Below, piece after piece: positions 26,224 to 63,694 of a DNA stretch of 64,000 nucleotides; within the stretch, counting starts at the first letter, position 1, and every line of letters starts with the position of its first letter. Both the position numbers and the translations under genes were made by a program. Source of the stretch: an uncultured Candidatus Rokubacteria bacterium (GTDB lineage: Bacteria > Methylomirabilota > Methylomirabilia > Rokubacteriales > CSP1-6); the NCBI GenBank assembly GCA_963771355.1, contig CAVYTA010000005.1, forward strand, positions 64,001 to 128,000, read 5' to 3'. Under the pieces are notes generated by a model, which was not told the origin of the DNA, ran no database searches, and was given only the letters and a program-made list of their open reading frames with translations.

Positions 26224-26273
26224 CGCCCCGGAGAGATTGAGCCCATGATCCGGGCCCTTCGGTGTGGGGCGGA

Positions 26274-26304
26274 GTGCTCATATCCAAGGGCCTGGATCCG
26301 GCCT
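26274..26304 (+). repeat. Direct repeat copy 2 (orphan modA-like 3' end, VLISKGLDPA*)
   Basis: GTGCTCAtaTCCAAGGGCCTGGATCCGGCCT, read through a TGA stop. Confidence 0.85.
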
Positions 26305-26321
26305 GAGAGTCGCGGCCCAGG

Positions 26322-27248: not shown

Positions 27249-27329
27249 AGGGCTCCCCCCTCGACGTTGTGAGAGGCGTTGCATGGACGCGAACCAGCGA
27301 CTGCAGGCTACCATACCGCCACCGAGCGC

Positions 27330-28472: not shown

Positions 28473-28479
28473 GTCGCGA

Positions 28480-29508
28480 TCACCGGAACGCCGGCAGCAC
28501 CTCTTTGGCGAAGAGCTGCATCGATTTCATGATGCGCGGGTGCTCGAGGTCGCCGAACCAGAAGCTGCAGTTGAAGTGGGTGATGCCGACCATCTCCTTC
28601 ACGCGCGTGATCTGGCGGATGACGGTGTCCGGCGTGCCGATCACGAGGAAGCGATCGAGCAGGTCGTCGGTGTCCGGCTCTTTCGGGCCGGGGACGGCCA
28701 CGGCGCGGCCGCGCTCCACTTTCTCGTAGTGATTGCGCAGGCTGAGCGTGACGCGCATGTTCCAGCGCGCTTCCTCGGCGGCGGCGCGCGCGTCGGCCGC
28801 GTTCTCGGTGACATAGACCGCGCGCTGCACGCCGACCGCCGGCATGCGAGACGGCTTCAGCTCCGCGATCAGGCGATCGAACTGCCTCCGGAAGTCCGCC
28901 ATACGCTCGATCGGGACACCGAAGCCGCCGGTGAGCAGGTTGAAGCCGCGCCGCACCGTCGCTTCGACCGACTCGGGGCTCTGCGCCGTCACCCAGATGG
29001 GCGGGTGCGGCTTCTGCAGCGGCTGCGGGAAGATCGTCGTCTCCGGAATCTGGAAGAGCTTGCCGGCGTAGGTGAACGGCTCCCCGGTGAAGGCCTTGAG
29101 GATGATGTCGACGGACTCTTCCCATCGCGCCCGGGCGGTGTCGAGCTCCAGGCCCAGACGCTCGAACTCGTAGTGCTGGTAGCCGCGCCCGAGCCCGATG
29201 TCGACACGGCCGCCGGCCAGCTGGTCCAGGGTGGCGATCTCCTCCGCGATGACGAGTGGGTGATGCAGTGGCACCACGATGACAGCGGTCCCCACGCGCA
29301 GCCGCGTGGTCTTCGCGGCGAGAAAGGTGGCGAGCTGCGCCGGACGCGAGAGGTAGCCGTAGGTCGAGAAATGATGCTCGGCGAGCCACACATTGCTGAA
29401 GCCGAGCGTCTCGGCCGCCTGCGCGATGTCGACGGCCCGCGAGTAGATCTCCTGCGAGGAGCGCATGGACGGCGACTGCATCAGGAGGAAGGTGCCGAAA
29501 TTGATCAT
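28480..29508 (-). CDS. LLM-class flavin-dependent oxidoreductase
   Basis: VWLAEHHF, AEEIATLD, GLGRGY, PLQKPHPPIW. Confidence 0.93.
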   Translation of the reverse strand: MINFGTFLLMQSPSMRSSQEIYSRAVDIAQAAETLGFSNVWLAEHHFSTYGYLSRPAQLATFLAAKTTRLRVGTAVIVVPLHHPLVIAEEIATLDQLAGGRVDIGLGRGYQHYEFERLGLELDTARARWEESVDIILKAFTGEPFTYAGKLFQIPETTIFPQPLQKPHPPIWVTAQSPESVEATVRRGFNLLTGGFGVPIERMADFRRQFDRLIAELKPSRMPAVGVQRAVYVTENAADARAAAEEARWNMRVTLSLRNHYEKVERGRAVAVPGPKEPDTDDLLDRFLVIGTPDTVIRQITRVKEMVGITHFNCSFWFGDLEHPRIMKSMQLFAKEVLPAFR

Positions 29509-29515
29509 GGGCCAC

Positions 29516-29544
29516 ACTCTGCCCGGTCGCGGTAGCCCCGTCAA
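29516..29544 (-). promoter_or_regulatory. sigma70-type promoter TTGACG-N17-CAGAGT (leaderless LLM gene)
   Basis: -10 ends 7 nt before ATG 29508; homologous copy at 49161-49204. Confidence 0.65.
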
Positions 29545-29654
29545 GCGCGCGAGGGAGTCAAAACGGCGGCGCGCGAACGGCCACGCAAGGTCGGGGGTGC
29601 GCGTCCCGCGCGCCGCCAGCTTCAGGTCTTACTTCTCGTCGCGGATCGCCGCCT

Positions 29655-30803: not shown

Positions 30804-30888
30804 GTGTGACCTCCATGTTCGGGGAGCCCGCGCTGCCGAGCCGCGGCGCTCATGTCCCGCATTACGAGATCCCTCTCTTCGCGGTGAA

Positions 30889-31730: not shown

Positions 31731-31790
31731 TGGATGAGGGTCTTCTCCCCGGCGATTGTACATGAAGCTCGAGGGCGTCGAAGCGAGCGG

Positions 31791-33228: not shown

Positions 33229-34900
33229 AGGACCGCAGCACCTGGCCCGCGGCCGCCCCGGTGAGCTTTCCGTCCGCCCAGGTCACCGCGCCGTTGACGA
33301 CCGTGTACTCGACGCCGCGCGACGGCATGACCATCCGCTTGGCGCCGCCGGGCAGGTCGAACCGCCGCTCGCCACGATTGGTCGAGCCGACCCGGCCCGC
33401 GTCGAAGATGGCCAGGTCCGCGGCGAGACCGGGGGCGAGCCGGCCACGGTCGCGGACCCCGAATACCTCGGCCGGATCCGAAGTGAGCCGCCGCACGCCT
33501 TCCTCCAGCGTCAGCGCCTGGCGCTCGCGCACCCACGTGCCCAGCAGGTAGGTCGGGTAGCCTGCGTCGCACAGCATGTCGACATGGGCGCCGCCGTCAC
33601 CCAGCGCCACCAGCACACTCTTGTCGTTCAGGATCTCCGTCATCCGGTCGACCCGCGTGTTGAAGGAGGCCATGGTGAATTCGACCTCGAGGTCGTCCTG
33701 GAGGGTCAGGTCCAGGAAGGTGTCGACGCCGTCCTTGCCCTGCTCGCGGGCGAGATCCGCGATCGAGCGGCCCTCGAGCGCTTTGAGGGCCGGCGACCTG
33801 ACCTCGTGCACGTTGATGCGCGCCCAGTTGCCGAAGGCCATCGGCTGCTTCAGCTCCTCGCGGAACTGGTTGCGGAAGGCGACATCGGCGTAGACCGCCG
33901 CCTGGGCCGGCTTCGACTTGTCGACGAACACCCGGTTCCAGCTCGGGAAGGCGGCGAAGGAGAACGGGTTGCGCATGTTGATGTCGCGGGTCAGGGGCAG
34001 GGGCGAGGTCTGGGGCCGTGCGCCGCGCGCGATCAACGGCGCGGCCTTTCGCAACGTCTCGCGCACCGCCTCCGGGATGTCGTCGCGATCGAAGAGGGCC
34101 AGAAAGGTGACGTGCTGGCCGCTCTCGCGCAGCAGGAAGTCGAGCAGCTCGTACTCCTCGTCGTCCATCACCGCGATCTTGCGGGTCAAGGCGATCTCGA
34201 TGGCGCCCTTGCCGCGCTCCTTCAGCGCGTTCGCGTAGGCCTTGAGCTCGTCGCGGCTGGCGTTGCGGCAGGCGAGCGGGCGACCCTGGAAGCCGACGTG
34301 CTGGTTGAGGATGGTGGTCGAGAAGCCGAAGGCGCCGGCGTCGATTGCCTCGCCGAGCAGCGCCTTGATCTGCGCCGTCTCGTCGGGGGTGGCGGCGCGC
34401 TCTATCGACGCCTCCCCCATCACGTAGTGGCGGAACGGGGTCAGGGGCGCCAGGAAGCCGAGATTGAGCGAGGGTTTCCGCCGTGCCGCGGCCTCGAGGA
34501 ATTCGGGGAAGGTCTCCCAGTCCCAGGTGATGCCCATGTTGAGGACGTCGAACGGAATCGCTTCGACGTTGACCAGGTCCCGCATGGCGACCTCGCGCGC
34601 CTTGGGCTTGCACGGCGCGATGCCGACCCCGCAGTTTCCCATGATGACGCTGGTGACCCCGTGCCACGATGAGGGTGTCACCGCGCCATCCCAGCAGATC
34701 TGGGCATCATAGTGGGTGTGCGGATCGATGAAGCCGGGCGCGACCACGAGATCGCTGGCATCGATGACGGTGGCGGCGCCCTCGGTCACCCGGCCGATCT
34801 CGGCGATCTTGCCGTCCGCCACCGCCACGTCGGCCCGCCGAGCCGCTGCGCCGGTGCCGTCCACCAGCATGCCGTTTCTGATCACCAGATCGTAGGCCAT
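33227..34900 (-). CDS. N-acyl-D-amino-acid deacylase family amidohydrolase
   Basis: PGFIDPHTHYD, GNCG, DGGAH, RGRLAPGLAAD. Confidence 0.9.
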   Translation of the reverse strand: MAYDLVIRNGMLVDGTGAAARRADVAVADGKIAEIGRVTEGAATVIDASDLVVAPGFIDPHTHYDAQICWDGAVTPSSWHGVTSVIMGNCGVGIAPCKPKAREVAMRDLVNVEAIPFDVLNMGITWDWETFPEFLEAAARRKPSLNLGFLAPLTPFRHYVMGEASIERAATPDETAQIKALLGEAIDAGAFGFSTTILNQHVGFQGRPLACRNASRDELKAYANALKERGKGAIEIALTRKIAVMDDEEYELLDFLLRESGQHVTFLALFDRDDIPEAVRETLRKAAPLIARGARPQTSPLPLTRDINMRNPFSFAAFPSWNRVFVDKSKPAQAAVYADVAFRNQFREELKQPMAFGNWARINVHEVRSPALKALEGRSIADLAREQGKDGVDTFLDLTLQDDLEVEFTMASFNTRVDRMTEILNDKSVLVALGDGGAHVDMLCDAGYPTYLLGTWVRERQALTLEEGVRRLTSDPAEVFGVRDRGRLAPGLAADLAIFDAGRVGSTNRGERRFDLPGGAKRMVMPSRGVEYTVVNGAVTWADGKLTGAAAGQVLRS

Positions 34901-35020: not shown

Positions 35021-36514
35021 ATGGCAGTGCGCGAGAGCGGCCGGCGAGTGGATGGCGAGTTCGCGGTGGTGATCCGCGGCGGGCGTGTGGTCGATCCCGC
35101 TCAGGGAATCGACACGCCGCGGGACGTCGCCATCGAGGACGGCGTGGTGGCCGCCGTCGGCACGAATCTGCGCGGGCGCGCCGTGCTCCCGGCCGAGGGC
35201 TGTGTGGTCGCGCCCGGCTTCATCGACCTGCACAGCCACGCGCAGAGCGTGGGCGGGCACCGGCTCCAGGCCTTCGACGGCGTCACCACCACGCTCGAGC
35301 TCGAGGCGGGCGCGATCCCGGTGGCGGAGGCGTATGCCCGGGCGGCCGCGGAGGGCCGGCCCTTGAACTTCGGCTACTCCGCGTCCTGGGCCGCCGCCCG
35401 GATACAGGTGCTCGCCGGGCACCGCGGCGACGGGCGGGCGACGACCATGCTCTCGCATTTCGCGAACCCCGCCTGGCAGCGGGAAGCCACCGCCGCCGAG
35501 GAAGACCGCATCGTCGGCCTCCTGGAGACCGAGCTGGCGGGAGGCGGCCTCGGCATCGGCGTGCTGGTGGGCTACGCGCCGGGGACGAGCCCCGCCGAAT
35601 ACCTGCGGGTGGCGCGTCTCGCCGCGTCGAGCCGGGTGCCGACCTTCACGCATGTGCGGGATCTCGTCGCCTTCGCGCCCACCACGCGCATGGACGGCGC
35701 CGAGGAGCTGGTGCGCGCCGCCGCCGAGACGGGCGCCCACATGCACTACTGCCACGTGAACAGCACCTCGCTGCGCCACGTCGACCGGGTCCTCGGTCTC
35801 GTCGATCGGGTGCGCCGCGAGGGCGCGACCGTTACCACCGAGGCCTATCCCTACGGCGCCGGGAGCACCGCGATCGGGGCGGCGTTCCTCTCGCCCGAGC
35901 GGCTCCCCGAGCGGGGCCTCCGGCCCACCGACCTCCTCTATGTGCCCACCAACGAGCGAGTGCGCGACGCCGAGCACCTCAATCGCCTGCGCGCCGACGA
36001 TCCGGGCGGGCTCTGCATCGTCCACTTCCTCGACGAGACGAACGCAGGTGACGCGGCGGTGATGCGCGCCGCCCTGAGCCACGCGGACACCATGGTGGCC
36101 AGCGATGCCATGCCCTTGACCTGGCTCGGAGCCCCCGCCGACGAGACGTGGCCGCTGCCGCCGAGCGCGCTCACGCACCCGCGCACGGCAGGAACCTTCG
36201 CCCGCTCCTTCCGGAGGCTGGTCGGCGACGGCGGCCTGAGCGTCGCCGAGTTCGTCCGGCGCGCGAGCCTGCTTCCCGCGGAGGTGCTCAAGGTGGCCAG
36301 CGGCGGCGCCGCGCGCAAGGGCACGCTCGCGGTGGGAGCGGACGCGGACGTCGTGGTGTTCGCGCCGGATGCGTTCCGCGACCAGGCGACCTACGAGGCG
36401 TCCACCCGGCCGTCCGCGGGAGTGCGGCACCTTCTGGTCGGCGGCGCGCCGGTGATTCGCGACGGCGCGCTGCTGCTCGATGCGCGGCCGGGTCGCCCCG
36501 CGCGGAAGGCGTAG
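35021..36514 (+). CDS. Amidohydrolase (D-glutamate deacylase-like)
   Basis: PGFIDLHSH, TEAYPY, ASDA, HPRTAGTF, KGTLAVGADAD. Confidence 0.88.
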   Translation: MAVRESGRRVDGEFAVVIRGGRVVDPAQGIDTPRDVAIEDGVVAAVGTNLRGRAVLPAEGCVVAPGFIDLHSHAQSVGGHRLQAFDGVTTTLELEAGAIPVAEAYARAAAEGRPLNFGYSASWAAARIQVLAGHRGDGRATTMLSHFANPAWQREATAAEEDRIVGLLETELAGGGLGIGVLVGYAPGTSPAEYLRVARLAASSRVPTFTHVRDLVAFAPTTRMDGAEELVRAAAETGAHMHYCHVNSTSLRHVDRVLGLVDRVRREGATVTTEAYPYGAGSTAIGAAFLSPERLPERGLRPTDLLYVPTNERVRDAEHLNRLRADDPGGLCIVHFLDETNAGDAAVMRAALSHADTMVASDAMPLTWLGAPADETWPLPPSALTHPRTAGTFARSFRRLVGDGGLSVAEFVRRASLLPAEVLKVASGGAARKGTLAVGADADVVVFAPDAFRDQATYEASTRPSAGVRHLLVGGAPVIRDGALLLDARPGRPARKA

Positions 36515-47662: not shown

Positions 47663-48334
47663 CTACCGTCCGGCGAGGGCACGATTCTCCAGCCGGCTCA
47701 AGAGCCGTACCACCGGCCACAGCATCAGAAAGTAAATTACCGCCGCCACCACGATGGGCGTCGGACTGTAGGTGATGCTCTGCGCTTGACGCGCCTGATA
47801 GAGGAGCTCGGGCACAGCCACCACGCTGCCGAGCGAGGTGAGCTTCACCACCTCGAGCGTGTTGGAGAGCAGGTCGGGCAGCACGTTGCGCACCGCCTGG
47901 GGCAGCACCACGTAGGCCATGGCCTGCAGGCGGGAGAGGCCGGTGGACCGCGCGGCCTCGACCTGGCCGGCCGGTACGGAATCGATTCCCGCCCGCAGGA
48001 TTTCGCCGTAGTAGGCCCCGGTGTTGAGGAAGAAGGCGACGGCCACACAGGCGAAGCCGCCCAGCTCCAGCCCCGCGAACGGGAGCCCGGCGAACAATAG
48101 AATGAGTAGCACCAAGGGCGGAAAGGCCCGGAAGAAATCGACCCAGGCCATCAGCGGCCAGCGCAGCACGGGATTCTTCACACTTGCCAGCAGGGCCAGG
48201 ATCAGCCCGCCGAACAGGCCGAGCGGCACCACCAGCAGCGACAGCAGCACGGTGTTGCGCAGCCCCGCCAGCACGATCGGCCAGGAAGCGGCGATGATCT
48301 CCGGATTGAAGAAGGTCTGGATCATCGCTTCCAC
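47663..48334 (-). CDS. Polar amino-acid ABC permease
   Basis: FFRAFPPLV, AYYGEILRAG, QVEAARSTG, LPQA. Confidence 0.93.
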   Translation of the reverse strand: MEAMIQTFFNPEIIAASWPIVLAGLRNTVLLSLLVVPLGLFGGLILALLASVKNPVLRWPLMAWVDFFRAFPPLVLLILLFAGLPFAGLELGGFACVAVAFFLNTGAYYGEILRAGIDSVPAGQVEAARSTGLSRLQAMAYVVLPQAVRNVLPDLLSNTLEVVKLTSLGSVVAVPELLYQARQAQSITYSPTPIVVAAVIYFLMLWPVVRLLSRLENRALAGR

Positions 48335-49005
48335 GCGAACTTGGTCTCGACCCAGCGGGCCGCCACCACGACGGGGAGGAACAGCACCAGGTAGGCGGCG
48401 GCGCCCATCATCAGCGGCGAGGGATTGTAGGAGTTGGACATCGCCGAGCTTGCTTGCCCGAGGATCTCGGTGACGGCGACGACGGTGCCAAGCGCGGTGC
48501 CCTTGGTGATGGCGATGGTACGGTTAGTGAGCGGGGGGATGGTGAGCCGGAGGGCCTGCGGCAGCACGACGTTCATCAGGGTGTGGCCGAACGACAGGCC
48601 GGTCGAGCGCGCGGCCTCCCACTGGCCCTTGGGCACCGAGGTGATGCCGGCCCAGAAGATCTCCTCGGAGAAGGCCATCAGCACGAAGGCGAGCGACAGC
48701 CAGGTCGAGACGAAGCCCGAGGGTGAGAGGTCGACGCTGGGCAGGCCGAAATAGATGAGGACGATGACGACCAGCGGCGGCAGCGAGCGGAACAGGTCGA
48801 CGGTGAAGATGATGAGCCAGTTGAGCGGACGGATGGCGAGGCTTCTGAGCAGCGCCAGGGCCAGGCCGGCGGCAATGCCGGTGACGACGATGAGGAGGGC
48901 CAGCTCGATCGTGACCACCACGCCGGACAGGATGTCCGGCAGGTACTTGAGCATGACCTTGGTGTTGAAGAACGTGTCGGTGAAGCGGTCCCAGTTCCCG
49001 CTCAA
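48322..49005 (-). CDS. Polar amino-acid ABC permease (TTG start coupled to upstream TGA)
   Basis: LFRSLPPLV, GQWEAARSTG, LPQA, KGTAL. Confidence 0.88.
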   Translation of the reverse strand: MSGNWDRFTDTFFNTKVMLKYLPDILSGVVVTIELALLIVVTGIAAGLALALLRSLAIRPLNWLIIFTVDLFRSLPPLVVIVLIYFGLPSVDLSPSGFVSTWLSLAFVLMAFSEEIFWAGITSVPKGQWEAARSTGLSFGHTLMNVVLPQALRLTIPPLTNRTIAITKGTALGTVVAVTEILGQASSAMSNSYNPSPLMMGAAAYLVLFLPVVVAARWVETKFAWKR

Positions 49006-49168
49006 TGCCGTTGGATCTGGCCGATGAAGGTGCGCGTGCGCTCCTGGGCGGGGTTCTCGAAGATGGCGGCGGGCGGACCCTGCTCCACGATGGCGCCCGC
49101 ATCCATGAAGAGGACCCGGTCGGTGGCGTTCCGGGCAAAGCCCATCTCGTGGCTGACCACGATCATGG
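48964..49168. repeat. Direct repeat A (ATPase 3' end + permease 5' end)
   Basis: 49002-49168 equals 52701-52867 with 3 substitutions; weaker similarity extends to 48964/52660. Confidence 0.92.
49002..49166 (-). pseudogene. Duplicated C-terminal 54 codons of the ABC ATPase as a mini-ORF (MIVVSHEMGF...QIQRH*)
   Basis: In frame from ATG 49166 to TGA 49002. Confidence 0.8.
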
Positions 49169-49173
49169 GCGAC

Positions 49174-49203
49174 ACTCTGCCCGGTCACCGTGATCCCAGT
49201 CAA
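49174..49203 (-). promoter_or_regulatory. Promoter TTGACT-N18-CAGAGT, homolog of the LLM gene promoter
   Basis: 49161-49186 matches 29503-29528 at 25/26 nt. Confidence 0.7.
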
Positions 49204-49384
49204 GTCGGCGGGGGATGGCAGGTCAATCCGGAGGAAGCACCACGTTCGCCGCCCGGTAGAAGATGAGGATGAGGGCGATGGCCAGCATGCTCGTGCTGGA
49301 CGCCGCTCCCGCCACCCGATACCATGGTGGGACCAGTCCGAGCTCCAGCCAGCGCCCCGCCACCATCAGGCCGGCGAAGGCACC

Positions 49385-49424
49385 GATCGTGGTGTGCGTC
49401 ACCTGATCGTGGTGTGCGTCACCT
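49385..49424 (+). repeat. 20-bp perfect tandem duplication
   Basis: GATCGTGGTGTGCGTCACCT x2. Confidence 0.9.
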
Positions 49425-49482
49425 GGACGAGCACCCGGGAGCAAACGGGAGATTGTTGGTCGTCAAGAGGAGATCGAACACG

Positions 49483-50739
49483 ATGATGCGGACGGCCAGC
49501 GTGCTTCGCGCAATTGTCCGGTCCACCAATGCCGCAGGCTCGATGCTTAGCCGAGCCGGGCTGCCTCTCGTCTCGCTCGACGAGGGAAGTTTGCTCGACG
49601 CCGCCCGCCGCGCCACGGGGCTGGACGACCTGGGCGGCGACGGCTTTCGCGAGCCCTTGAGGATGGTGCTGCAGGGACTCGAAGCCGAGGCCCGGCTCAC
49701 GCTCGTGGGCCGCATCGCGGCGCGGCAAGACGTCATCGGCCTCCTCGCGAATCGCCTGCGTCTCGAGGAGGACGGCAAGCGGCATCCGGAGATCGGGGCG
49801 CAAGACGTCCCGCAGCCGCTCTTCATCGTGGGGCTGCCGCGCACGGGAAGCACGCTCCTCCACCACCTTCTGGCCCAGGACCCGGGCAGTCGCGTCGCCC
49901 AGGCATGGGAGGTCATGTTCCCGTCGCCGCCGCCCGAGGCCCGGAGGTACCAGACCGACCCGCGGATCGCCCGTGCCGCTCGGCAGCTCGCGTGGTTCGA
50001 TGCGCTCACCCCCGAGTTCAAGTCGATCCACCCCCTCGGGGCACAGCTCGCGCTCGAGTGCATCGCCATCATGAGTCCGACCTTTCTCTCCCCCCGCTTC
50101 CACACGACCTACCACGTGCCGACATACCAGGAGTGGCTCGAGCGACAAGACCTGCGCCCGGCCTACCGCTTTCACCGTCGGTTTCTCCAGCAGCTGCAAT
50201 GGCGGGCGCCGGCCCGGCGATGGGTCCTGAAGGCGCCCTCGCACCTCTTTGCCTTCGACGCGCTCCTGGAGACGTATCCCGACGCCCGCATCGTGCAGAC
50301 CCACCGCGATCCACTCACCGTGCTGGCGTCCGTCGCGAGCCTGACCGCCGTCCTCCAGCGCGCGTTCACCGACGACCTTAACCCCCTCGAGATCGGCCGC
50401 GAGGTGAGCCGGCGCTGGACGAACGGGCTCGACCGGGCCATGCGGCTCCGGCGCAGCGGCCGAGTTCTCGCCGAGCGATTCATCGACGTGCACTATCACG
50501 AGATGGTCCGTGACCCCATGGCGGTGGTGCGGCGGATCTACGCGCACTTCGACATCCCGCTGACCGAGGCCGCGGCGGAGTCGATGCGCCGGTTCCTCGC
50601 CGAGAACCCCAAGGACAAGCACGGCGCCCATCGGTACTCCCTGAGCTCGTTCGGGCTCGAGGCGGACGATCTTGCCCGGCGGTTCAAGGCCTATCGCGAG
50701 TTTTACGGCGTGCCCCGGGAAGAGGTTTCGCCGCAGTGA
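49483..50739 (+). CDS. PAPS-dependent sulfotransferase (Sulfotransfer_3-like)
   Basis: IVGLPRTGSTLLH 5'-PSB, WVLKAPSHL, THRDP...S 3'-PB; AAGAGGAG RBS. Confidence 0.9.
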   Translation: MMRTASVLRAIVRSTNAAGSMLSRAGLPLVSLDEGSLLDAARRATGLDDLGGDGFREPLRMVLQGLEAEARLTLVGRIAARQDVIGLLANRLRLEEDGKRHPEIGAQDVPQPLFIVGLPRTGSTLLHHLLAQDPGSRVAQAWEVMFPSPPPEARRYQTDPRIARAARQLAWFDALTPEFKSIHPLGAQLALECIAIMSPTFLSPRFHTTYHVPTYQEWLERQDLRPAYRFHRRFLQQLQWRAPARRWVLKAPSHLFAFDALLETYPDARIVQTHRDPLTVLASVASLTAVLQRAFTDDLNPLEIGREVSRRWTNGLDRAMRLRRSGRVLAERFIDVHYHEMVRDPMAVVRRIYAHFDIPLTEAAAESMRRFLAENPKDKHGAHRYSLSSFGLEADDLARRFKAYREFYGVPREEVSPQ

Positions 50740-50748
50740 GGCGCGACA

Positions 50749-52464
50749 CTACCTGACGAAGCCCTGGCGTTCGAGATACTCGAGCACTCGGCGTGCGTTC
50801 TGATCGGGGCCGGTGACCACGGTGTCGAGGGTGATCTCGGGGGACTCCGGCGTCTCGTAGGGGTCGTCGATACCCGTGAACCCCGTGATTTCTCCGCGCC
50901 GGGCTTTCGCGTAGACACCTTTGCTGTCGCGCCGCTCGCAGACCTCCAGCGGCGTGTCCACGAAGACCTCGACGAAGTGATCGGCCCCCACCAGGTGGCG
51001 CACCTCGTCGCGCGTCGTGCGGTACGGGCTCACCGCCGCGCACAGGGCCACGCCCCCGTGCCGCACGATCTCGGCGGCGACGAATCCGATACGCCGGATA
51101 TTGGTGTCGCGGTCCTCCTTGCTGAAGCCCAGGCCCTTGGATAGGTGGGTGCGTACCACGTCACCGTCCAGCACGGTGATCTGCCGGCCGCGCTCGAGCA
51201 GCAGCACGGTGAGGATCTCGGCGGTGGTGGACTTGCCGGCGCCGCTGAGCCCGGTGAACCACACGCACACGCCCTGTCGGTGGCGCGGAGGGTAGGTGTC
51301 CATGAGGATCTGGCCGACCTCGGGCCGGGTAAACCAACCGGGGAGCTTCTCGCCGGCGTTGAGGAAATCTTCACGGACCTGGGTGCCCGAGATGGAGGCA
51401 GTCCGCGCGTTCGTGGGGATGCGCGAAATCTCCTCGTAACGGTCCTCGTCGGGCAGGTACATCATCTCGCCGAACGGCAGCATCCCGATGCCCAGCTCCT
51501 CCTGGAAGCGCCCGACCAGCTCCTGGGCGTCGTAGGCCCCGTAGAAGGGCTTGCCGGCGGAGTCCAGGCCGGGGCTGGCGTGATCGCGGCCGACGATGAA
51601 GTGGCTCGCCCCATGATTGCGCCGGATAAGAGCGTGCCACACTGCCTCGCGCGGTCCCGCCATGCGCATGGCGAGCGGGAGGAGGGCCAGGAGCACGCGC
51701 CCACGCTCGTAGTAGCGCTCGACCAGCACCTTGTAGGTCCGCACGCGCGTGTAGTAGTCCACGTCGCCCGGCTTGGTCATCCCCACCACCGGGTGCAGGA
51801 GTAGGGTGCCTGCCACCGCGTCGGCCGCGCGCCGGGTGAGCTCCTCATGGGCCCGATGCAGCGGATTCCGCGTCTGGAATGCGACGACATTGGCGGCGCC
51901 TAGGGCGGCGAGCCGGGCGCGGGTCTCGGCGGGGGTCAGGCGGATGTCGCGGAAGTCATGACGCGGCGGCAGGGCCAGGATCTGCAAGGGGCCCGACAGG
52001 TTGATGTCACCCCACCGCTGCGTCTCGGCGACCAGCGGGTGGCGCACATCGCACGTACCGAGAACCTGCTGCGCTGTCGCCGCCCGATCCCACTCGTAGG
52101 CCTCATCGATCGTCATGAGCCCCAGCAGCTCGTTGTGGGCGTCGCGGAGCGCCACCTGCTGGTCGAGGCGCACTGCCGGCGTCCGGTCCACCGGCAGGAC
52201 GACGGGGATGGGAAAGAGCTGGCCGGTTGCCAGCCGCATCTCGCCTACCACCCGCTCGAAGTCGCTCCGGCTCATGAAACGGTTGAGTGGCGAGAACCCG
52301 CCGGTGGCCAGGAGCTCGAGGTCATAGACCGCGCGCTCCGAGAGCTGGATCGAGGGAAGACGATTGGCGCGGGCGCGCAGCTCGGCCTGGGCTTCTGCGG
52401 GGACAATCAGGTTGACGAGAGACCCGCCGACGGGCGGGACCAACCCGGTAGAGGACGTGGTCAT
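50749..52464 (-). CDS. sat/cysC: Bifunctional sulfate adenylyltransferase / APS kinase (PAPS synthase)
   Basis: FQTRNPLHRAH, VGRDHA, ISGT, WFTGLSGAGKST, LDGD, FTGIDDPYE. Confidence 0.95.
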   Translation of the reverse strand: MTTSSTGLVPPVGGSLVNLIVPAEAQAELRARANRLPSIQLSERAVYDLELLATGGFSPLNRFMSRSDFERVVGEMRLATGQLFPIPVVLPVDRTPAVRLDQQVALRDAHNELLGLMTIDEAYEWDRAATAQQVLGTCDVRHPLVAETQRWGDINLSGPLQILALPPRHDFRDIRLTPAETRARLAALGAANVVAFQTRNPLHRAHEELTRRAADAVAGTLLLHPVVGMTKPGDVDYYTRVRTYKVLVERYYERGRVLLALLPLAMRMAGPREAVWHALIRRNHGASHFIVGRDHASPGLDSAGKPFYGAYDAQELVGRFQEELGIGMLPFGEMMYLPDEDRYEEISRIPTNARTASISGTQVREDFLNAGEKLPGWFTRPEVGQILMDTYPPRHRQGVCVWFTGLSGAGKSTTAEILTVLLLERGRQITVLDGDVVRTHLSKGLGFSKEDRDTNIRRIGFVAAEIVRHGGVALCAAVSPYRTTRDEVRHLVGADHFVEVFVDTPLEVCERRDSKGVYAKARRGEITGFTGIDDPYETPESPEITLDTVVTGPDQNARRVLEYLERQGFVR

Positions 52465-52528
52465 GTGACTCTCCTGGCGCTAAGTGGAATTGGCCAGGGG
52501 CATTCTACTCGCGGCCGACGGAGCCGCA

Positions 52529-52550
52529 GCATAGGACTTAGGGCCTATGC
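52529..52550. promoter_or_regulatory. Inverted repeat GCATAGG-N8-CCTATGC upstream of sat
   Basis: Perfect 7-bp arms; TAGAAT -10 on the minus strand at 52507-52502. Confidence 0.5.
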
Positions 52551-52659
52551 CAACTGCTTCCGGACCTTCTCCGGGGATTGTTCGACCCCAGCTGCCCCGC
52601 CGACGGATTCCGCGAGCGCTGCCTCGAGTGGGCCAACGTGGATGCATGTCGAACGTGAC

Positions 52660-52867
52660 GTTGAAGGACGTCTCGGTGAAGCGATCCCACCTCGACGACA
52701 TCAATGCCGCTGGATCTGGCCGATGAAGGTGCGCGTGCGCTCCTGGGCGGGGTTCTCGAAGATGGCGGCGGGCGGACCCTGCTCCACGATGGCGCCCTCA
52801 TCCATGAAGAGGACCCGGTCGGCGGCGTTCCGGGCAAAGCCCATCTCGTGGCTGACCACGATCATGG
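52660..52867. repeat. Direct repeat B (ATPase 3' end + truncated, diverged permease start MSSRWDRFTETSFN)
   Basis: See repeat A. Confidence 0.9.
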
Positions 52868-53441
52868 TCATGCCGCTCTCGCGCAAGGAGCGCATGACCT
52901 CGAGCACCGAGCCCACCAGCTCCGGATCGAGCGCGCTGGTCGGCTCGTCGAACAACATGACCCGAGGCTCGAGCGCGATCGCGCGCGCGATGGCCACTCG
53001 TTGCTGCTGGCCGCCCGAGAGCTGGCCCGGCGTGTGACCGGCGCGGTCACCGAGGCCGACCCGCTCCAGGGCGGCCTGGCCCAGCGCCTCGGCGCCGGCA
53101 CGCGACTTGCCCGCGACCTTGCGGAGCGCGAGCGTCACGTTGCCGAGCGCCGTCATGTGCGGATAGAGATTGAAGGACTGGAACACCATGCCGATGCGCT
53201 GGCGGGCATGGTTGATGTCGGTCCGCGGGTCGAGCATGTCGATACCGTCCACCACCACGCTGCCGGAGGACGGCTCCTCCAGTCGATTGAGGCAGCGCAG
53301 CAGGGTCGACTTGCCCGAGCCCGACGGCCCGATGACGAACACCAGCTCGCGCTCGGCCACCCGGAGATCGACACCCTTCAGGACATGAAGGGCGCCGAAA
53401 TGCTTGTGGAGGCCGCGCGCGTCGACGATCGGGTTGTTCAT
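52701..53441 (-). CDS. Polar amino-acid ABC ATP-binding protein (GlnQ-like)
   Basis: GPSGSGKST, LSGGQQQR, FDEPTSALDPE, SHEMGFA. Confidence 0.95.
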   Translation of the reverse strand: MNNPIVDARGLHKHFGALHVLKGVDLRVAERELVFVIGPSGSGKSTLLRCLNRLEEPSSGSVVVDGIDMLDPRTDINHARQRIGMVFQSFNLYPHMTALGNVTLALRKVAGKSRAGAEALGQAALERVGLGDRAGHTPGQLSGGQQQRVAIARAIALEPRVMLFDEPTSALDPELVGSVLEVMRSLRESGMTMIVVSHEMGFARNAADRVLFMDEGAIVEQGPPAAIFENPAQERTRTFIGQIQRH

Positions 53442-53450
53442 TCCCTCAGG

Positions 53451-54302
53451 TCAGCTGCACTTGAGCTCGTGCGGCGTGGGGTCGTAGCCCGGCATGCCCG
53501 GCACGCCGTAGCCCGGCGTGATCACCACCTCGAGGCCGTCGGCCGGCGGCTTGCGGCCGAACCACTTCTCGGAAAGCTTGGCGATGCTGCCGTCCTTCTT
53601 CATGCAGTCGAGCGCATCCTGGAGCTCGGCGCGGAGCTTCGGGTTGTTCTTGGGCACCGGCGCCGCCCAGTGGGCGCGCGTGTCCTTGAGCTCCAGGTCG
53701 GCCACGAATTGCGGGTTCTTCGACGCGGCGTAGACGATGGTGGTGTTGCCGCCGAGGGTCGCATAGGCGCGGCCGGAGAGGACCGCCTGGGTGGCGTCCG
53801 GCTGGTTGTCGTAGACCTGTACCGTGAAGTCGTGCTCGGCACCCTTGGCCTTGGACAGCGTCTCATACGGGGTGCCCTTGTTGACGGCCACCGACTTCCC
53901 CTTGAGGTCGGTCCAGTCCTTGATCGGGGCCGAGCCCTTCTTGATGCCGAACTGGTACGCGGTCCACAGGTAGCCCGCGGTGAACAGCATGTTCTCCGCC
54001 CGCTCCTTGGTCACCGTGGTCGGCGCGGCGATGAAGTCGTAGCGGCCGGACTGCATGCCCGGGATCAGGGTGGAGAAGCTCACGGCGTCGATGGTGATCT
54101 CGCGCTTCAGGCGGCGCGCGACCTCGGTGAAAAGGTCGATCTGGAAGCCCTCGACGCCGCCGCCCATCTTGGGCATGGCGTGCGGCGCGAAGGTGCCATC
54201 GACGCCGGTCCTGAGCGGCGGAAGCTTGTCCTGGGCGAGCGCGGGACCCGCGCAGAGAAGAGCGGTTACCGCAATGGCGGCAAAGCGACGATGCATCATC
54301 AT
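53451..54302 (-). CDS. Polar amino-acid ABC substrate-binding protein (SBP3)
   Basis: Signal peptide; EGFQIDL, TKER, DLKGKSV, KWFG. Confidence 0.93.
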   Translation of the reverse strand: MMMHRRFAAIAVTALLCAGPALAQDKLPPLRTGVDGTFAPHAMPKMGGGVEGFQIDLFTEVARRLKREITIDAVSFSTLIPGMQSGRYDFIAAPTTVTKERAENMLFTAGYLWTAYQFGIKKGSAPIKDWTDLKGKSVAVNKGTPYETLSKAKGAEHDFTVQVYDNQPDATQAVLSGRAYATLGGNTTIVYAASKNPQFVADLELKDTRAHWAAPVPKNNPKLRAELQDALDCMKKDGSIAKLSEKWFGRKPPADGLEVVITPGYGVPGMPGYDPTPHELKCS

Positions 54303-57896: not shown

Positions 57897-58766
57897 CTAC
57901 TTCTTCCCGCCCTGGGCCTTCCGTGCGGGGGTCGTGGCGGCGGGCTCGGTACGGGCGACCTTGACGGGAGGCTTGCGTGGGGCGGCCCCGGCGGCGCGCT
58001 TGGCGAGGCTCTCCTTGAGGGCCTCCATGAGATCGATAACCTGGCTCCGCGGTGCCTCGGCGGTCGCCGTCGTGATCTCCTTGCCCTCGACCTTCTGGTT
58101 CACCATGTCGAGGATGCGCTCGCGATACTCGTCCCGGTACTGGTCGGGCTTGAACTCCTCGGTCGAGAGCTCGTCGACCAGCTTCCGGGCGAGCTCCCCT
58201 TCGCGCTCCTGGACCTTGGCGGACTTTCCCTTGTCGATCTCGCCGAAGTCGCGCACCTCGTCGGCAAAGTACATCGTGTGGAGCATGAGGCCGTCCTGCG
58301 CGGGGCGGACCAGGACGAGGCTCTCCTTGCCGCGCATGAGGAACCGGGCGACCGCCACGCGGTTGGCCTTGGCCATGGTCTCGGCGAGGAGTCGATAGGC
58401 CTTGTCTCCGCCCTTGTCGGGTCCGAGGTAGTACGTCTTCTCGAAGTAGATCGGATCCACCTGGGTGAGGGGCACGAACTCCGCGATGTCGATCACCTTG
58501 GAGTCCTCGCCCTCGAGCGACTTGAGCTCCTCGTCGCTCACCCGCACGTACTGGTCCTTGGAGAACTCGTAGCCGCGCACGAGCTCGTTCCGCTCGACCA
58601 CCACCTGGCAGGCGGGACAGAATGTCTGCTGCTTGATGCGGGATCCGCACTTGGCGTGGAGCATGTTGAAGGCCACGTTCGCGGAGACCGCGGCGGAGTA
58701 GAGCTTCACGGGGATGGAGACGAGCCCGAAGGAGATGGTGCCGGACCCGATGGAATGCGGCGGCAT
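57897..58766 (-). CDS. ku: NHEJ Ku protein
   Basis: GTISFGLVSIPVKLY, RGYE, YYLGP, AYRLL, VIDLMEALKESL, basic tail. Confidence 0.96.
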   Translation of the reverse strand: MPPHSIGSGTISFGLVSIPVKLYSAAVSANVAFNMLHAKCGSRIKQQTFCPACQVVVERNELVRGYEFSKDQYVRVSDEELKSLEGEDSKVIDIAEFVPLTQVDPIYFEKTYYLGPDKGGDKAYRLLAETMAKANRVAVARFLMRGKESLVLVRPAQDGLMLHTMYFADEVRDFGEIDKGKSAKVQEREGELARKLVDELSTEEFKPDQYRDEYRERILDMVNQKVEGKEITTATAEAPRSQVIDLMEALKESLAKRAAGAAPRKPPVKVARTEPAATTPARKAQGGKK

Positions 58767-58898
58767 GGAGCACTCCTCCTGTATGGTGAACTGAATTCGA
58801 CGGTATCACGGGCTTCTCGGGGGTTCAAAACCTTGGCAGCGTCGGCGGCCGGCTCCAATGGATAGGGTGCGAGGCGGCGGTCATGGGCGAGGGATGGT

Positions 58899-61457
58899 AT
58901 GAGCGCGCGTGCCCGGGCGCTCGACGCGTACCGGGCCAAGCGCGATCCCGCGCGGACGCCCGAGCCCTTCAGCGGGCGGCGCGCGGCGGGGAGCCGGCTT
59001 TTCGTCGTCCAGAAGCATGCCGCCCGGCGCCTCCACTACGACCTCCGCCTGGAGATGGACGGCGTCCTCAAGAGCTGGGCGGTGCCCAAGGGCCCATCGA
59101 TGCGTCACGGCGAGAGGCGCCTGGCCGTCCACGTCGAGGATCATCCCGTGGAGTACGCGGACTTCGAGGGCGTGATCCCGCGTGACAACTATGGCGCCGG
59201 CTCGGTGATCGTCTGGGACCGCGGCTGGTATCGTCTCGCCAAAGGCGAAGACCCCCTCCGCGAGCTCGCGCAGGGCAAGCTCGAATTCGAGCTCTACGGG
59301 ATGAAGCTCCGCGGGCGCTGGACGCTGGCGCGGATGGGCGGGCGCCGCGCGGAGGGAGTGGCACCGGCCAAGGACTGGCTCCTCCTCAAGGCGCCCGACG
59401 CCTACGCCGATAGCGAGGAGCCGGTCGAGCGCGCGCCCGAATCGGTCTTCTCCGGCCTCACCGTGGAGGAGATCGGCGGGGAGTCCGAGAAGCGCGCCGC
59501 GCTCGATACCGTCCTCGCGTCGCTCGAGGCGCCGGTCGGCGAGGTCGTCGCCCGGCGGCAGCCGCTCATGCTTGCGACGCTCGCGGAGCGGACGCCGGCG
59601 GGACCCGGCTGGCTCTTCGAGATCAAGTACGACGGGGTGCGCGTCCTCGCCGAGCGGGACGGCGACACGGTGGCGCTCTACGGCCGGAAGGGAGATGCGG
59701 TGACCGCGCGCTATCCGGAGGTGGTGCGCGCGCTCCGGGCTCTGCCGGTATCCCGCTTCGTGATCGACGGCGAGATCGTGGCCCTCGGCGAGGATGGCCG
59801 GCCGAGCTTCCAGCGTCTCCAGGCCCGGATGCACCTCACGCGTGCCGACGACATCGATGCCGCCCGCGCGGCGGTGCCGGCCACCGGGATCTTCTTCGAC
59901 TGCCTGGCCATCGAAGGTCGCGATCTCCGGCGCCGGCCGCTCCTCGAGCGCAAGGGATGCCTCGAGCTCCTGGTGCCCACCCGCGGCGTGGCCCGCTACT
60001 GCGAGCACGTCGCGGGGGGCGGGGCCGCGTTCTTCGAGGCGGTGGGAGAGCTCGGTCTCGAAGGCATCGTCGCCAAGCGGGCGGCGAGCGCCTACGCGGG
60101 CGGGCGCTCCCGCGACTGGGTCAAGGTGAAGTGCCAGCACCGGCAAGAGTTCGTCATCGGCGGTTACACCGCGCCCCAGGGCTCGCGCGGCTACTTCGGA
60201 GCGCTCCACCTCGGCCTCTACGAGGAGGATCGCCTCGTCTACGTATCCAAGGTGGGGACCGGATTCGACGAGCGCGCCCTCGCCGCGATCGCGAAGCGCC
60301 TTGCCCCGCTCGCCCGCGCCACGTCACCGTTCGCGGCGGGCTCGCCGACCGGCCGCGGGCATCACTGGGTGGAGCCGCGGCTCGTCTGCGAGGTACGCTT
60401 CACCGACTGGACGGCCGACGGGGGCATCCGCCATCCCGCCTTCCTCGGACTCCGGGATGACCGACGGCCCGAGGAGTGCCGGCGGGAGCGGCCATTCGAG
60501 CTTCCGTCCGCCCCCCCGGCGCCGGCGGCCCCCGAGGAAGGAGAAGCGCCGCCGCCGCCTCCGGTGGAACGCCAGGTGGTGAAGGTCACCAACCCCAAAA
60601 AGGTCTTCTGGCCGGCGGAAGGCTATACCAAGGCCGATCTCGTCGCGTACTACGAGACGGTGGCGCCGCACCTCCTGCCCTACCTTCGCGACCGCCCCTT
60701 GGTTCTCACACGCTATCCCGACGGGATCACCGGCAAGTCTTTCTTCCAGAAGGACGCCCCCGACTTCGCCCCCGCGTGGATTCGCACCGAGCGCATCTAC
60801 TCGCACGACACGGAGCGGGACATCGATTATTTCGTCGTGGACGACGTGGAGTCGCTCCGCTACGTGGCGAACCTCGGCACGATCCCTCTCCACTTCTGGG
60901 GGGCGCGAGTCCCGCACCTGGACCGGCCGGATTGGCTCGTCCTCGACCTCGACCCGAAGGGCGCGCCGTTCACCGACGTGGTGGCGGTCGCCCGCACGCT
61001 CCGGCGCATTCTCGAGCGGCTCGAGGTGCCGAGCCACGTCAAGACCTCGGGAGCCACCGGGCTGCACATCCTGGTGCCCCTCGGCGCCCGCTACACCCAC
61101 GACGAGGCGCGCACCTTCGCGCGACTCCTCGCCACGCTCGGCGTCGAGGCGGCCGGCGGCATCGCGACCATTGCCCGTCCCATCCGGGCCCGTGGCGGCA
61201 AGGTCTACATCGACTTCGGCCAGAATGGCCACGGCCGCACCATCGTGGCGCCGTACTCCGTGCGCCCGCTGCCGGGGGCGCCGGTGTCGTGTCCGCTTCG
61301 CTGGGACGAGGTAACCCCGAAGCTCGACCCCGCGCGCTTCACCATCGCCACCGCGCCGGCCCGGTTCGCGCGGATGCGCGACCCCCTCGCGGCGATCCTC
61401 ACTCACCCGGGCATCGATCTCGCCGAGACGCTGGCGCGCCTGGCCGAGCGGCGATAA
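58899..61457 (+). CDS. ligD: DNA ligase D (phosphoesterase-ligase-polymerase)
   Basis: QKHAARRLHYDLRLE; EIKYDG, EGIVAK, WVKVK; RYPDG..FFQK, DLDP, KTSG..GLH. Confidence 0.96.
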   Translation: MSARARALDAYRAKRDPARTPEPFSGRRAAGSRLFVVQKHAARRLHYDLRLEMDGVLKSWAVPKGPSMRHGERRLAVHVEDHPVEYADFEGVIPRDNYGAGSVIVWDRGWYRLAKGEDPLRELAQGKLEFELYGMKLRGRWTLARMGGRRAEGVAPAKDWLLLKAPDAYADSEEPVERAPESVFSGLTVEEIGGESEKRAALDTVLASLEAPVGEVVARRQPLMLATLAERTPAGPGWLFEIKYDGVRVLAERDGDTVALYGRKGDAVTARYPEVVRALRALPVSRFVIDGEIVALGEDGRPSFQRLQARMHLTRADDIDAARAAVPATGIFFDCLAIEGRDLRRRPLLERKGCLELLVPTRGVARYCEHVAGGGAAFFEAVGELGLEGIVAKRAASAYAGGRSRDWVKVKCQHRQEFVIGGYTAPQGSRGYFGALHLGLYEEDRLVYVSKVGTGFDERALAAIAKRLAPLARATSPFAAGSPTGRGHHWVEPRLVCEVRFTDWTADGGIRHPAFLGLRDDRRPEECRRERPFELPSAPPAPAAPEEGEAPPPPPVERQVVKVTNPKKVFWPAEGYTKADLVAYYETVAPHLLPYLRDRPLVLTRYPDGITGKSFFQKDAPDFAPAWIRTERIYSHDTERDIDYFVVDDVESLRYVANLGTIPLHFWGARVPHLDRPDWLVLDLDPKGAPFTDVVAVARTLRRILERLEVPSHVKTSGATGLHILVPLGARYTHDEARTFARLLATLGVEAAGGIATIARPIRARGGKVYIDFGQNGHGRTIVAPYSVRPLPGAPVSCPLRWDEVTPKLDPARFTIATAPARFARMRDPLAAILTHPGIDLAETLARLAERR

Positions 61458-61490
61458 GGGCCCATCTGCGACGTCCCGGTAAGCCGGGAC

Positions 61491-61618
61491 GCCGGGCGGC
61501 GAGAAGGGTCCAGATGCGAGGCGGCGCCCGACGGCCGCACGCGAAGGCGTACTTTCTGTACGTTGAGCGTGCGGCCGAGGGCGCCAACGACGCAGATGGG
61601 CCCTTCTCGCCGCCCGGC
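61491..61618. repeat. 128-nt MITE/REP-like long hairpin with 28-bp terminal inverted repeats
   Basis: GCCGGGCGGCGAGAAGGGtCCAgaTGCG ... CGCAGATGGGCCCTTCTCGCCGCCCGGC (25/28) plus nested stems. Confidence 0.8.
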
Positions 61619-62346
61619 TAGGCCAGCAGCTCGGTGAGCTTCCGGGCCAGGGGCGGGCCGGTGGCGCCGTCCTCGTGCTTGAAATAGACGAAGGCGCCCC
61701 CGGCGCCGAAGAGCTCGCGGATCGTCCCCGCCCAGTGCGCGAGCGCCTCCGGCGAGTATTCGACGGCGCGGAGGCGAAAATAACCCCAGTCGGCGGTGGC
61801 CACCGCCGGGGTAGCGCCGTCGTCGTGGTCGACGATGCACAGCGCGACGTTCCGCCCGCGCAGCAGCCCGTAGACCTCCTCGTCGAACCAGCTCGGGTGG
61901 CGAAATTCGAAGGCCACGCGCAGATCGAGCGGGAGCAGCGCGAGCACACCGCCGAGGCGCTCCGTGTCCTTCTTGAAGTTCGGCGGGAGCTGGAAGAGGA
62001 GGGGGCCGAGCTTCCCGGCGAGGAGGCGCGCCGTGTCGCAGAAGTAGCGGACGGGCTCCTCCACCTCCCGGAGCCGCTGGAAGTGGGTGATCCGCTGGGA
62101 CGCCTTCAGCGCGAAGGTGAAGCGATCCGGGGTGGCCGCCGTCCAGCCGGCGACGGTCTTGGCGTTCGGCAGGCGGTAGAAAGTGTAGTTGATCTCGACG
62201 GTGGGGAAGCGCTCGGCGTAGTAGGGGAGCATTTTGGCCGTCGAGAGGCCCTCCGGATAGAAGGCTCCTTTCCACTCCGGGTAGTTGTACCCGGAGGTCC
62301 CGACGAGGATGCGCGCAGTCGCGGGGTCGTCTTGCGCCGGCACCAT
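61618..62346 (-). CDS. DUF72 (YecE) family protein
   Basis: GTSGYNY..W, VEINYTFY, LFQLPP, AFEFRH, YFRLR. Confidence 0.93.
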   Translation of the reverse strand: MVPAQDDPATARILVGTSGYNYPEWKGAFYPEGLSTAKMLPYYAERFPTVEINYTFYRLPNAKTVAGWTAATPDRFTFALKASQRITHFQRLREVEEPVRYFCDTARLLAGKLGPLLFQLPPNFKKDTERLGGVLALLPLDLRVAFEFRHPSWFDEEVYGLLRGRNVALCIVDHDDGATPAVATADWGYFRLRAVEYSPEALAHWAGTIRELFGAGGAFVYFKHEDGATGPPLARKLTELLA

Positions 62347-62851: not shown

Positions 62852-63694
62852 ATGACCATCGGACGACCCGAATCCGTGTCCCGAACCTTCATGACCCAGG
62901 TGACGCCCTTTTCATTCGATCCGACCGAATTCGCCGGCAAGCGTGCCCTTGTCACTGGCGGGACCAAGGGCATGGGTGAGGCCATCGTGCGGCGCCTCGC
63001 TGCCGGCGGCGCGAGGGTGGCGACCACCGCACGCTCACCGTTACCAGAAAGCCAGGTTGTGGAATTGTTCGTCCAAGCCGACATCAGCACTGGCGAGGGC
63101 GTGGACAAGGTGGTCCGAGGAGTACTGGACCGTCTCGGCGGGGTGGATATCCTCGTCAGCAACGTCGGCGGCTCCTCCGCCCCGAGCGGCGGCGTGCTGG
63201 CTCTCGGCGACCAGGATTGGCAGGACACCATCAACGCCAACCTGCTCGGGGCGGTCCGCCTCGACCGCGGGCTGCTGCCCGGTATGCTGGAGCAGGGATC
63301 CGGCGTCATCATCCATATCTCGTCGATCCAGCGGCGCCTGCCGCTGTTCGAGGCGACGCTCGCCTATGCGGCGGCCAAGGCCGCGCTGACGACCTACAGC
63401 AAGGGGTTGTCGAAGGAAGTCGGGCCCAGGGGCGTCCGCGTGAATACGGTCGCGCCCGGCTTCATCGAAACGACGGCCGCACATGGCCTCATCGTTCGGC
63501 TCGCAGAACAGGCCGGGACTGACGAGGATGCTGCCCGCCGGGGCCTGATCGCCACTCTTGGAGGGATTCCGATTGGCAGGCCCGGCCGGCCCGAAGAGGT
63601 CGCTGAATTGGTGGCCTTCCTCGTTTCCAACCGGGCCGCCTCGATTCACGGGAGCGAATACGCAATCGATGGCGGCACCGTACCGGTCGTCTGA
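62852..63694 (+). CDS. SDR oxidoreductase
   Basis: TGGTKGMG, NVGG, YAAAK, VAPG, IDGG. Confidence 0.93.
   Translation: MTIGRPESVSRTFMTQVTPFSFDPTEFAGKRALVTGGTKGMGEAIVRRLAAGGARVATTARSPLPESQVVELFVQADISTGEGVDKVVRGVLDRLGGVDILVSNVGGSSAPSGGVLALGDQDWQDTINANLLGAVRLDRGLLPGMLEQGSGVIIHISSIQRRLPLFEATLAYAAAKAALTTYSKGLSKEVGPRGVRVNTVAPGFIETTAAHGLIVRLAEQAGTDEDAARRGLIATLGGIPIGRPGRPEEVAELVAFLVSNRAASIHGSEYAIDGGTVPVV

Follow-up and report, generated by a model that had tools for sequence, protein, structure and literature searches.

Candidate promoter capture at a microhomology junction in a split ABC transporter operon of an uncultured Rokubacteria bacterium

Two permease genes of an ABC transporter stand apart from the rest of their operon in the genome studied here (G000; 8 contigs, 5.5 Mb, 70% GC), and they are preceded by a stretch that resembles the start region of a different gene, one for a luciferase-like monooxygenase (LLM). 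How did that start region come to lie there, and might it now serve the permeases? The window, as the analysed stretch of 64,000 nucleotides is called below, corresponds to G000:C5:64001-128000. On our reading of the sequence, a diverged LLM promoter-like start was fused to a duplicated ATPase tail through a microhomology of 8 bp, likely as a head-to-tail join between two related haplotypes, and became a predicted promoter for the permeases; we lean towards this account.

The features of the locus are collected in Table 1. In order of transcription they are the substrate-binding protein (SBP) gene, the ATPase gene, a permease stub, sat/APS kinase, a convergent sulfotransferase gene, a CopD-like remnant, allele A of the LLM-gene upstream element, a second ATPase tail, permeases 1 and 2, about 18 kb of other genes, allele B of the element, and the LLM gene. 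All of the genes discussed are on the minus strand except that for the sulfotransferase, which, with a length of 1.26 kb, separates the permeases from the upstream part of the operon.

Table 1. Features of the locus in descending order of position (window coordinates).
Feature	Position	Strand	Remarks
Substrate-binding protein (SBP), polar-amino-acid-type ABC transporter	53451..54302	-	PF00497; 95%/94% nt identity to G059/G021
Complete ABC ATPase gene, 246 aa	52701..53441	-	PF00005
Direct repeat copy 1, ATPase 3' end	52701..52867	-	From microhomology to stop codon, 167 bp; 3 mismatches to copy 2
5' stub of first permease	52652..52702	-	Truncated; own ATG overlaps ATPase stop
ATP sulfurylase/APS kinase fusion (sat)	50749..52464	-	PF01747+PF01583; sole ATP sulfurylase found in genome, single copy
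Sulfotransferase	49483..50739	+	Sole PF13469 match in genome; 82% aa identity to G004 ortholog
Deletion scar	49386..49436	-	20-bp tandem duplication at 49425-49386; about 4.2 kb missing versus 4 relatives (MMPL gene and most of CopD-like gene)
3' remnant of CopD-like membrane protein gene	49223..49431	-	81% aa identity to residues 483-541 of G004 protein; PF05425 on full-length ortholog
Diverged allele (A) of LLM-gene upstream element	49161..49216	-	Predicted leaderless sigma-70-type promoter: -35 (TTGAC hexamer) at 49203-49198, 18-nt spacer, -10 (CAGAGT) at 49179-49174, 7 nt, ATG at 49166
8-bp microhomology	49161..49168	-	Junction of LLM start and ATPase codons 192-194
54-aa ORF	49002..49166	-	ATPase residues 193-246 (repeat copy 2); stop overlaps permease TTG; no Pfam match
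Intact permease 1	48322..49005	-	PF00528; 95%/94% nt identity to G059/G021
Intact permease 2	47663..48334	-	PF00528
Resident LLM-gene upstream element (allele B)	29503..29557	-	Predicted leaderless promoter, 19.7 kb downstream of junction on same strand: -35 at 29544-29539, 17-nt spacer, -10 at 29521-29516, 7 nt, ATG at 29508
Luciferase-like monooxygenase (LLM) gene, 342 aa	28480..29508	-	PF00296

The LLM upstream element and its diverged copy

The first-pass annotation had proposed that 49161-49204 is homologous to 29503-29545. This is confirmed, and the similarity extends slightly beyond those limits, to about 49216/29557. Self-BLAST of the window, suggested there as a check, recovers the promoter homolog with an E value of 1e-6 (82% identity over 55 nt; 2.5e-7 for the whole genome), and the 26-nt core differs between the LLM copy and the copy at 49161 by a single mismatch (25/26). 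Only these two sites lie within five mismatches of the core on either strand of the 5.5-Mb genome, the next being three sites with six. A sequence-only model, trained on six LLM-upstream elements with the 49161 copy left out, scores that copy at 43.9 bits (E 1.5e-10), and the next match in the genome reaches 23.2 bits. A common genome-wide repeat, named in advance as an outcome that would speak against the proposal, is therefore not what is seen. In 151 genomes of the family, with 37 candidates scored in each, E values below 1e-9 occur only for four training LLM-upstream elements and the 49161 copy.

That the similarity reflects convergence on a promoter consensus, or a dispersed repeat, is hardly credible. 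Leaderless-type TTGAC...ATG sites are frequent in this genome, and a look-alike in genome G162 precedes an unrelated gene; yet the identity of the two copies reaches outside the boxes, and neither the mismatch counts nor the gap from 43.9 to 23.2 bits leaves room for another site of the kind. The 49161 element is also no recent copy of the resident LLM promoter, a possibility ruled out by an identity of only 82%, no closer than to the alleles of other genomes.

The look-alike (G162:C8:770366-770411, minus strand; locus L181) scores 35.5 bits and adjoins the ATG of an unrelated, apparently frameshifted ORF, which we take to be SnoaL-like; it represents either a second capture or convergence. 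Among the 26 loci with weaker matches to the model, six (L183, L184, L187, L190, L194, L199) contain distant LLM paralogs. In L184 the motif stands immediately before the LLM start, which hints at a promoter style common to the family. Between the dehydrogenase stop and the resident LLM promoter the window has a strong hairpin (29556-29635, -39 kcal/mol) followed by a short T run; it is absent in the sister lineage L097 and is possibly a terminator or a small palindromic insertion.

The claimed layout, TTGAC-N17/18-CAGAGT-N7-ATG, is present at both copies, with spacers of 18 and 17 nt. For a leaderless sigma-70-type promoter, boxes 17-18 nt apart and an ATG 5-9 nt after the -10 box are expected; allele A has 18 and 7 nt. 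Its -10 box matches the consensus at only three of six bases. Differences between the alleles fall mostly outside the -35 and -10 boxes, and the spacer varies. The genome as a whole has 54 sites, where 21 are expected, at which an in-frame ATG follows TTGAC at a distance of 35-38 nt (Poisson P 2e-9), figures that rest on crude gene calls, on a distance range picked after the histogram had been seen, and on a set of 54 that includes the resident copy. An xAxxxT hexamer follows at 17-18 nt in 38 of these 54 sites, as against 116 of 239 sites at distances of 45-89 (P 0.004) and 567 of all 5231 TTGAC sites. Fourteen of the 38 hexamers begin with C, as does the CAGAGT of both LLM-type copies. These patterns point to a predicted leaderless class, TTGAC-N17/18-xAxxxT-N5-9-ATG, into which both copies fit. 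A strict sigma-70 scan of 26000-32000 returned no site, the resident copy included, its threshold of 9 of 12 excluding this class. A literature search, with most subscription journals outside its coverage, found no paper on leaderless promoters in Rokubacteria.

The identity of the element as a promoter is predicted, from pattern and conservation, and on that prediction the locus has the feature that defines promoter capture: the predicted promoter of another gene lies directly upstream of the permeases as the result of a rearrangement. An orphan element is found in genome G002 (L207:15770-15824; G002:C22, about 23780-23823, minus strand), placed after an oxidoreductase-like gene and with no gene behind it. 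Both the ATG and the conserved A of the -10 box are gone from this decayed copy, whose spacer is close to that of the 49161 allele.

The junction, the direct repeat and the split operon

The 8-bp microhomology is exact and holds both the LLM start codon and Met193 of the ATPase, in frame, so that the coincidence of the element's ATG with an internal ATG of the ATPase gene, claimed earlier, holds. Its length falls in the range of 3-10 bp that homology-facilitated illegitimate recombination (HFIR) requires at one junction. Random joins of the LLM locus to the SBP/ATPase region give 8 bp or more with a probability of 4.4e-4 (400,000 random joins). Of 42 microhomologies of at least 8 bp between the LLM locus and the ATPase gene, 28 keep promoter, start and frame; the in-frame join thus requires no special selection, and we rejected it as a sign of selection.

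The 54-aa ORF, with its TGA overlapping the TTG of the permease, is present as described. From its position within the ATPase, the peptide would lack the Walker A, signature and Walker B motifs. The TTG/TGA overlap occurs in four of nine aligned relatives and is thus ancestral, and no purine-rich ribosome site precedes the permease TTG. From these two observations, translation of the tail would be expected to help that of permease 1, and the predicted translational coupling is inherited, not created, by the join.

The strongest self-match of the window, 48964-49168 against 52660-52867 (94%), is absent from the first-pass account. It consists of the short 5' stub of the permease and a repeat of 167 bp (52701-52867 / 49002-49168) from the 3' end of the ATPase gene. 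Each half of the junction therefore has a counterpart on the same strand, that of the right half 3.7 kb upstream (52701-52867) and that of the left half 19.7 kb downstream (29503-29557). This is the geometry expected where the end of one unit has been joined to the start of the next, and it likely marks a head-to-tail duplication of the interval from ATPase to LLM gene. Between ATPase tail and LLM start there are two fillings in tandem that have nothing but their ends in common.

One filling holds the sulfation cassette. Its CopD-like remnant ends a few bases before the promoter homolog. Neither CysD nor the PAPS-reductase family has a match in the genome; retention of the cassette for sulfate assimilation is accordingly not supported, and it likely supplies PAPS for sulfation instead. 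The spacer of about 140 bp between stub and sat (52508-52650) has no match above shuffles in the genome, in the fetched loci or upstream of four sat orthologs. We infer that the cassette should be able to pop out through the 167-bp repeat, which would leave the operon whole again.

G059 and G021 are the nearest relatives (91-95%) of the SBP, the ATPase and the two permeases alike, which indicates one allele split in two. An origin of the two halves from different lineages was considered and is not supported, the nearest relatives being the same in four trees that are themselves weakly supported (0-3 starred branches of 6). The operon as a whole (47663-54302) is nearer to G059, of another family (91-95%), and to G021, of another genus, than to members of its own genus (82-91%), which suggests transfer across lineages.

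Genes for the non-homologous end joining proteins Ku and LigD occupy 57897-61457 of the window, at a distance of 4-7 kb from the locus. The two proteins could join ends at microhomologies; the proximity of their genes is no evidence that they did. Self-BLAST also finds other short or inverted repeats at 21850-21898 / 26252-26304, at 34712-34747 / 35204-35239 / 63448-63468, and at 61419-61638.

Relatives and divergence of the pieces

A match running from the ATPase tail through permease 1 was found in 11 of 60 relatives, and a match across the junction in none. The unbroken operon SBP-ATPase-permease-permease is present in all seven relatives for which the wider region was fetched. The full cassette, sat-sulfotransferase-MMPL-CopD-like, was found in four members of the genus; about 4.2 kb are missing from the copy studied here. 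In G004 and G007 the ABC operon follows the cassette 23-29 kb downstream on the same strand, and in G006 the cassette lies 44 kb upstream of the LLM ortholog, again on the same strand and also upstream of the FAD oxidase ortholog. The genes that follow the CopD-like gene vary among the four genomes, and none is the LLM gene. Three other genomes of the genus (G001, G003, G007) and two more alleles from metagenomes have the element in front of their LLM orthologs, with differing upstream neighbours; the LLM orthologs of G005 and G006 lack it.

The earlier suggestion to look for relatives in which the sulfation cassette abuts an LLM ortholog gave nothing. No cassette gene occurs in 183 LLM loci, a collection of overlapping sets with many short flanks and five distinct alleles bearing the element (23 loci from the relatives search, the best 80 of 551 metagenome matches and the best 80 of 187 genome matches), and neither the LLM gene nor the element occurs in 30 CopD-like loci. 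The donor arrangement, cassette-allele A-LLM, is therefore a putative one. In G004, G006, G007, G001 and G003 (L021-L033, L210-L212) the same accessory blocks are found in an order that differs per genome, with breakpoints often near stop codons.

The pieces have diverged unequally. The ATPase copies differ at 3 of 167 positions (1.8%), the promoter alleles at 10 of 55 (18%; Fisher P 7e-5), and the stub at 8 of 39 (P 9e-5 against the ATPase copies; 4 of 31, P 0.012, when the last 8 nt are omitted). A simple tandem duplication should leave copies equally diverged along their length, which is not what is found, so that two haplotypes or a later conversion are needed. Both ATPase tails share the private changes of this genome. 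All three differences between them sit on the downstream copy (two non-synonymous, one synonymous), and at one of these sites the G004 codon is that of the downstream copy. The tails read as one allele that was probably duplicated recently, the downstream tail drifting.

Allele A is 80-84% identical to every allele compared, the resident one included, which fits an origin in another lineage. Its identity to the resident allele is 82%, as against 88% between the resident allele and that of the sister lineage L097, which is 93% alike over the LLM region and also shares the dehydrogenase gene upstream of the resident allele. Unlike the resident allele, allele A has the -35 context and 18-nt spacer seen in G003/L099. 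The stub shows 8 differences in 39 positions from the intact permease of its own genome and 10-19 from 11 relatives; a genus-typical donor allele, considered as its source, is not supported, its nearest relative being its own permease.

Non-synonymous to synonymous private changes number 8:44 in the permeases, 11:19 in the SBP and 4:19 in the ATPase (SBP versus permeases, P 0.03). Those of the permeases mostly predate the event. With only about 2% neutral change since then, the kept boxes, the open 54-aa frame and the intact permeases cannot show selection.

Origin of the arrangement

The simplest reading is unequal exchange between two diverged haplotypes. In one chromosome the interval from ABC operon to LLM gene would have been filled by the sulfation cassette, in another by the permeases and the 18-kb block. 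An unequal exchange, guided at one end by homology and completed at the other by end joining or a template switch at the microhomology, would have set both fillings in tandem. Redundant parts (one permease pair, MMPL/CopD) would have been lost before or after the exchange, and the donor could be either haplotype. A ComEC-family gene is present in the genome. That the ATPase tails are nearly identical calls for a further assumption, be it a conspecific partner, a template switch or a later conversion. A leaderless transcript is predicted to start at or next to 49166; the 54-aa tail would be translated as a non-functional peptide, and, as before in the ancestral operon, the overlapping TTG would serve ribosomes for re-initiation; the split transporter would then be made from two promoters.

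Its main rival, an old intragenomic duplication followed by tail conversion, strikes us as distinctly less probable. Here a unit of at least about 23-28 kb, from ATPase tail to LLM promoter, would have arisen in tandem by template switch at the microhomology, with complementary deletions and a later conversion of the tails. Three deletions suffice, copy 1 losing the permeases and the 18-kb block and copy 2 the cassette; geometry and size match the repeats of 7-32 kb bordered by 4-15 bp that PMC1428787 describes. The two tails belong to a single ATPase allele, the permease closest to the stub is that of the same genome, and the same-strand order in G006, cassette then FAD oxidase and LLM orthologs, would suit such an interval. 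Set against this, divergence is much greater in the promoter alleles (18%) and the stub (13-20%) than in the tails (1.8%), no further remnants common to both copies were found, and the adjacency of dehydrogenase, promoter and LLM gene is common to L097, so that the duplication would predate that split. If true, such a duplication would yield the same junction and the same predicted promoter capture, with no donor. Whatever its origin, the element might be a passive remnant, the permeases being silent or read through from the sat promoter or the upstream part of the operon. We regard this as unlikely, though less so than the intragenomic origin. Promoter activity is only predicted and selection since the event is undetectable; remnants do arise, as the decayed G002 orphan attests, no strong terminator-like fold is evident in three stretches folded between stub and element, and the excess of non-synonymous change in the SBP over the permeases is compatible with some relaxation of the transporter. 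Yet the copy, unlike the G002 orphan, keeps the spacing of -35, spacer, -10 and ATG of the predicted leaderless class, the ATPase is without relaxation, and read-through must cross a convergent gene.

An assembly chimera of two co-occurring strains is a much weaker candidate and in our view very improbable. The source is a metagenome-assembled genome in 8 contigs with 2.2% contamination, and its arrangement is found in no relative; however, assemblers do not join sequences on an overlap as short as 8 bp, and the locus bears evolved scars (a stub cut short, three derived changes confined to one tail, and a deletion of 4.2 kb accompanied by the 20-bp duplication) that make a chimera unlikely. 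Fourteen DNA runs from five studies, one of which runs may be the source, contain 79-92% of the sampled words of a 6.8-kb stretch; cassette and operon both occur in the samples behind these runs, a result that does not imply their adjacency. Two RNA runs contain fractions of 0.36 and 0.32 of the words and were not counted as evidence. Less probable still is a decayed integrative element that entered the ATPase gene carrying a replacement 3' end, in the manner of lambdoid elements in icd. A 167-bp direct repeat with a complete gene restored upstream and a 3' fragment left downstream is what such an event would produce. However, none of the 11 matches to tyrosine recombinases (PF00589), the family to which the search was confined, lies in or near the window; the repeat begins exactly at the microhomology with the LLM start; and the cargo cassette is chromosomal in four relatives of the genus.

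The mechanism first proposed, HFIR, stands in part. As set out in PMC3240628, HFIR combines a homologous end with an illegitimate end of 3-10 bp microhomology and usually causes deletion. The one microhomology end of that size, the foreign-looking allele and the ComEC-family gene fit. HFIR usually deletes recipient DNA of similar size, whereas here 167 bp are duplicated, nothing of the resident operon is lost, and both tails are one allele. In the polarity first proposed the event is an insertion without deletion, so that HFIR fits only when reversed, with the promoter resident and the permeases incoming. PMC3240628 also ascribes duplications of 109-950 bp to a re-circularised donor with single crossover, and PMC3784515 reports that transformation can trigger tandem duplications (merodiploids). 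The locus resembles these in the direct repeat of that size flanking an insert and in a duplication that incoming DNA may have triggered; it differs in that a diverged donor should leave donor-type bases in the repeats, where none are seen, and in having no IS repeats at the unit borders. Homologous recombination in soil populations, Rokubacteria among them, is described in PMC7305173.

Capture of promoters by rearrangement is a standard route according to PMC5526668, in which the citT duplication of the E. coli long-term experiment is cited as Blount 2012. The likeness lies in a duplication-type junction that sets a foreign promoter, here predicted, before genes that were cut off. The differences are the natural, uncultured lineage and a diverged, predicted leaderless allele that brings its own start codon. 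The microhomology-bordered duplications of PMC1428787 are likewise head to tail, and the junction of 8 bp and a unit within 7-32 kb agree with them; the units here differ in sharing only their ends, and these ends have diverged by 1.8% and 18%. Among the papers listed by our literature search there was no directly comparable natural case in bacteria, either of HFIR with microhomology and duplication or of promoter capture at a microhomology. Judged from its sequence, the locus behaves as a promoter-capture duplication junction, and it fits neither strict HFIR in the polarity first proposed nor a simple duplication of identical copies.

A broader and frankly speculative view, which we think improbable, is that leaderless promoters in Rokubacteria-like genomes act as portable promoter-plus-start modules and form a recurrent route of reshuffling, this locus being a caught intermediate and the G002 orphan and G162 look-alike further cases. 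With the start codon inside the promoter, in a context resembling internal Met codons, one microhomology join could supply transcription, initiation and frame. If so, the ATPase tail would be a sacrificial coupling leader for the TTG-start permease.

The classes of mechanism involved are already well described, and the locus, seen in one genome, is a natural case of a known process and not a new system. If the promoter is active, it would be a near-intact natural record of an operon split and rewired without mobile elements, by microhomology duplication, promoter capture and complementary loss. It also adds evidence, at the level of sequence, for a predicted class of leaderless promoters in a lineage for which genomes are the only source of knowledge.
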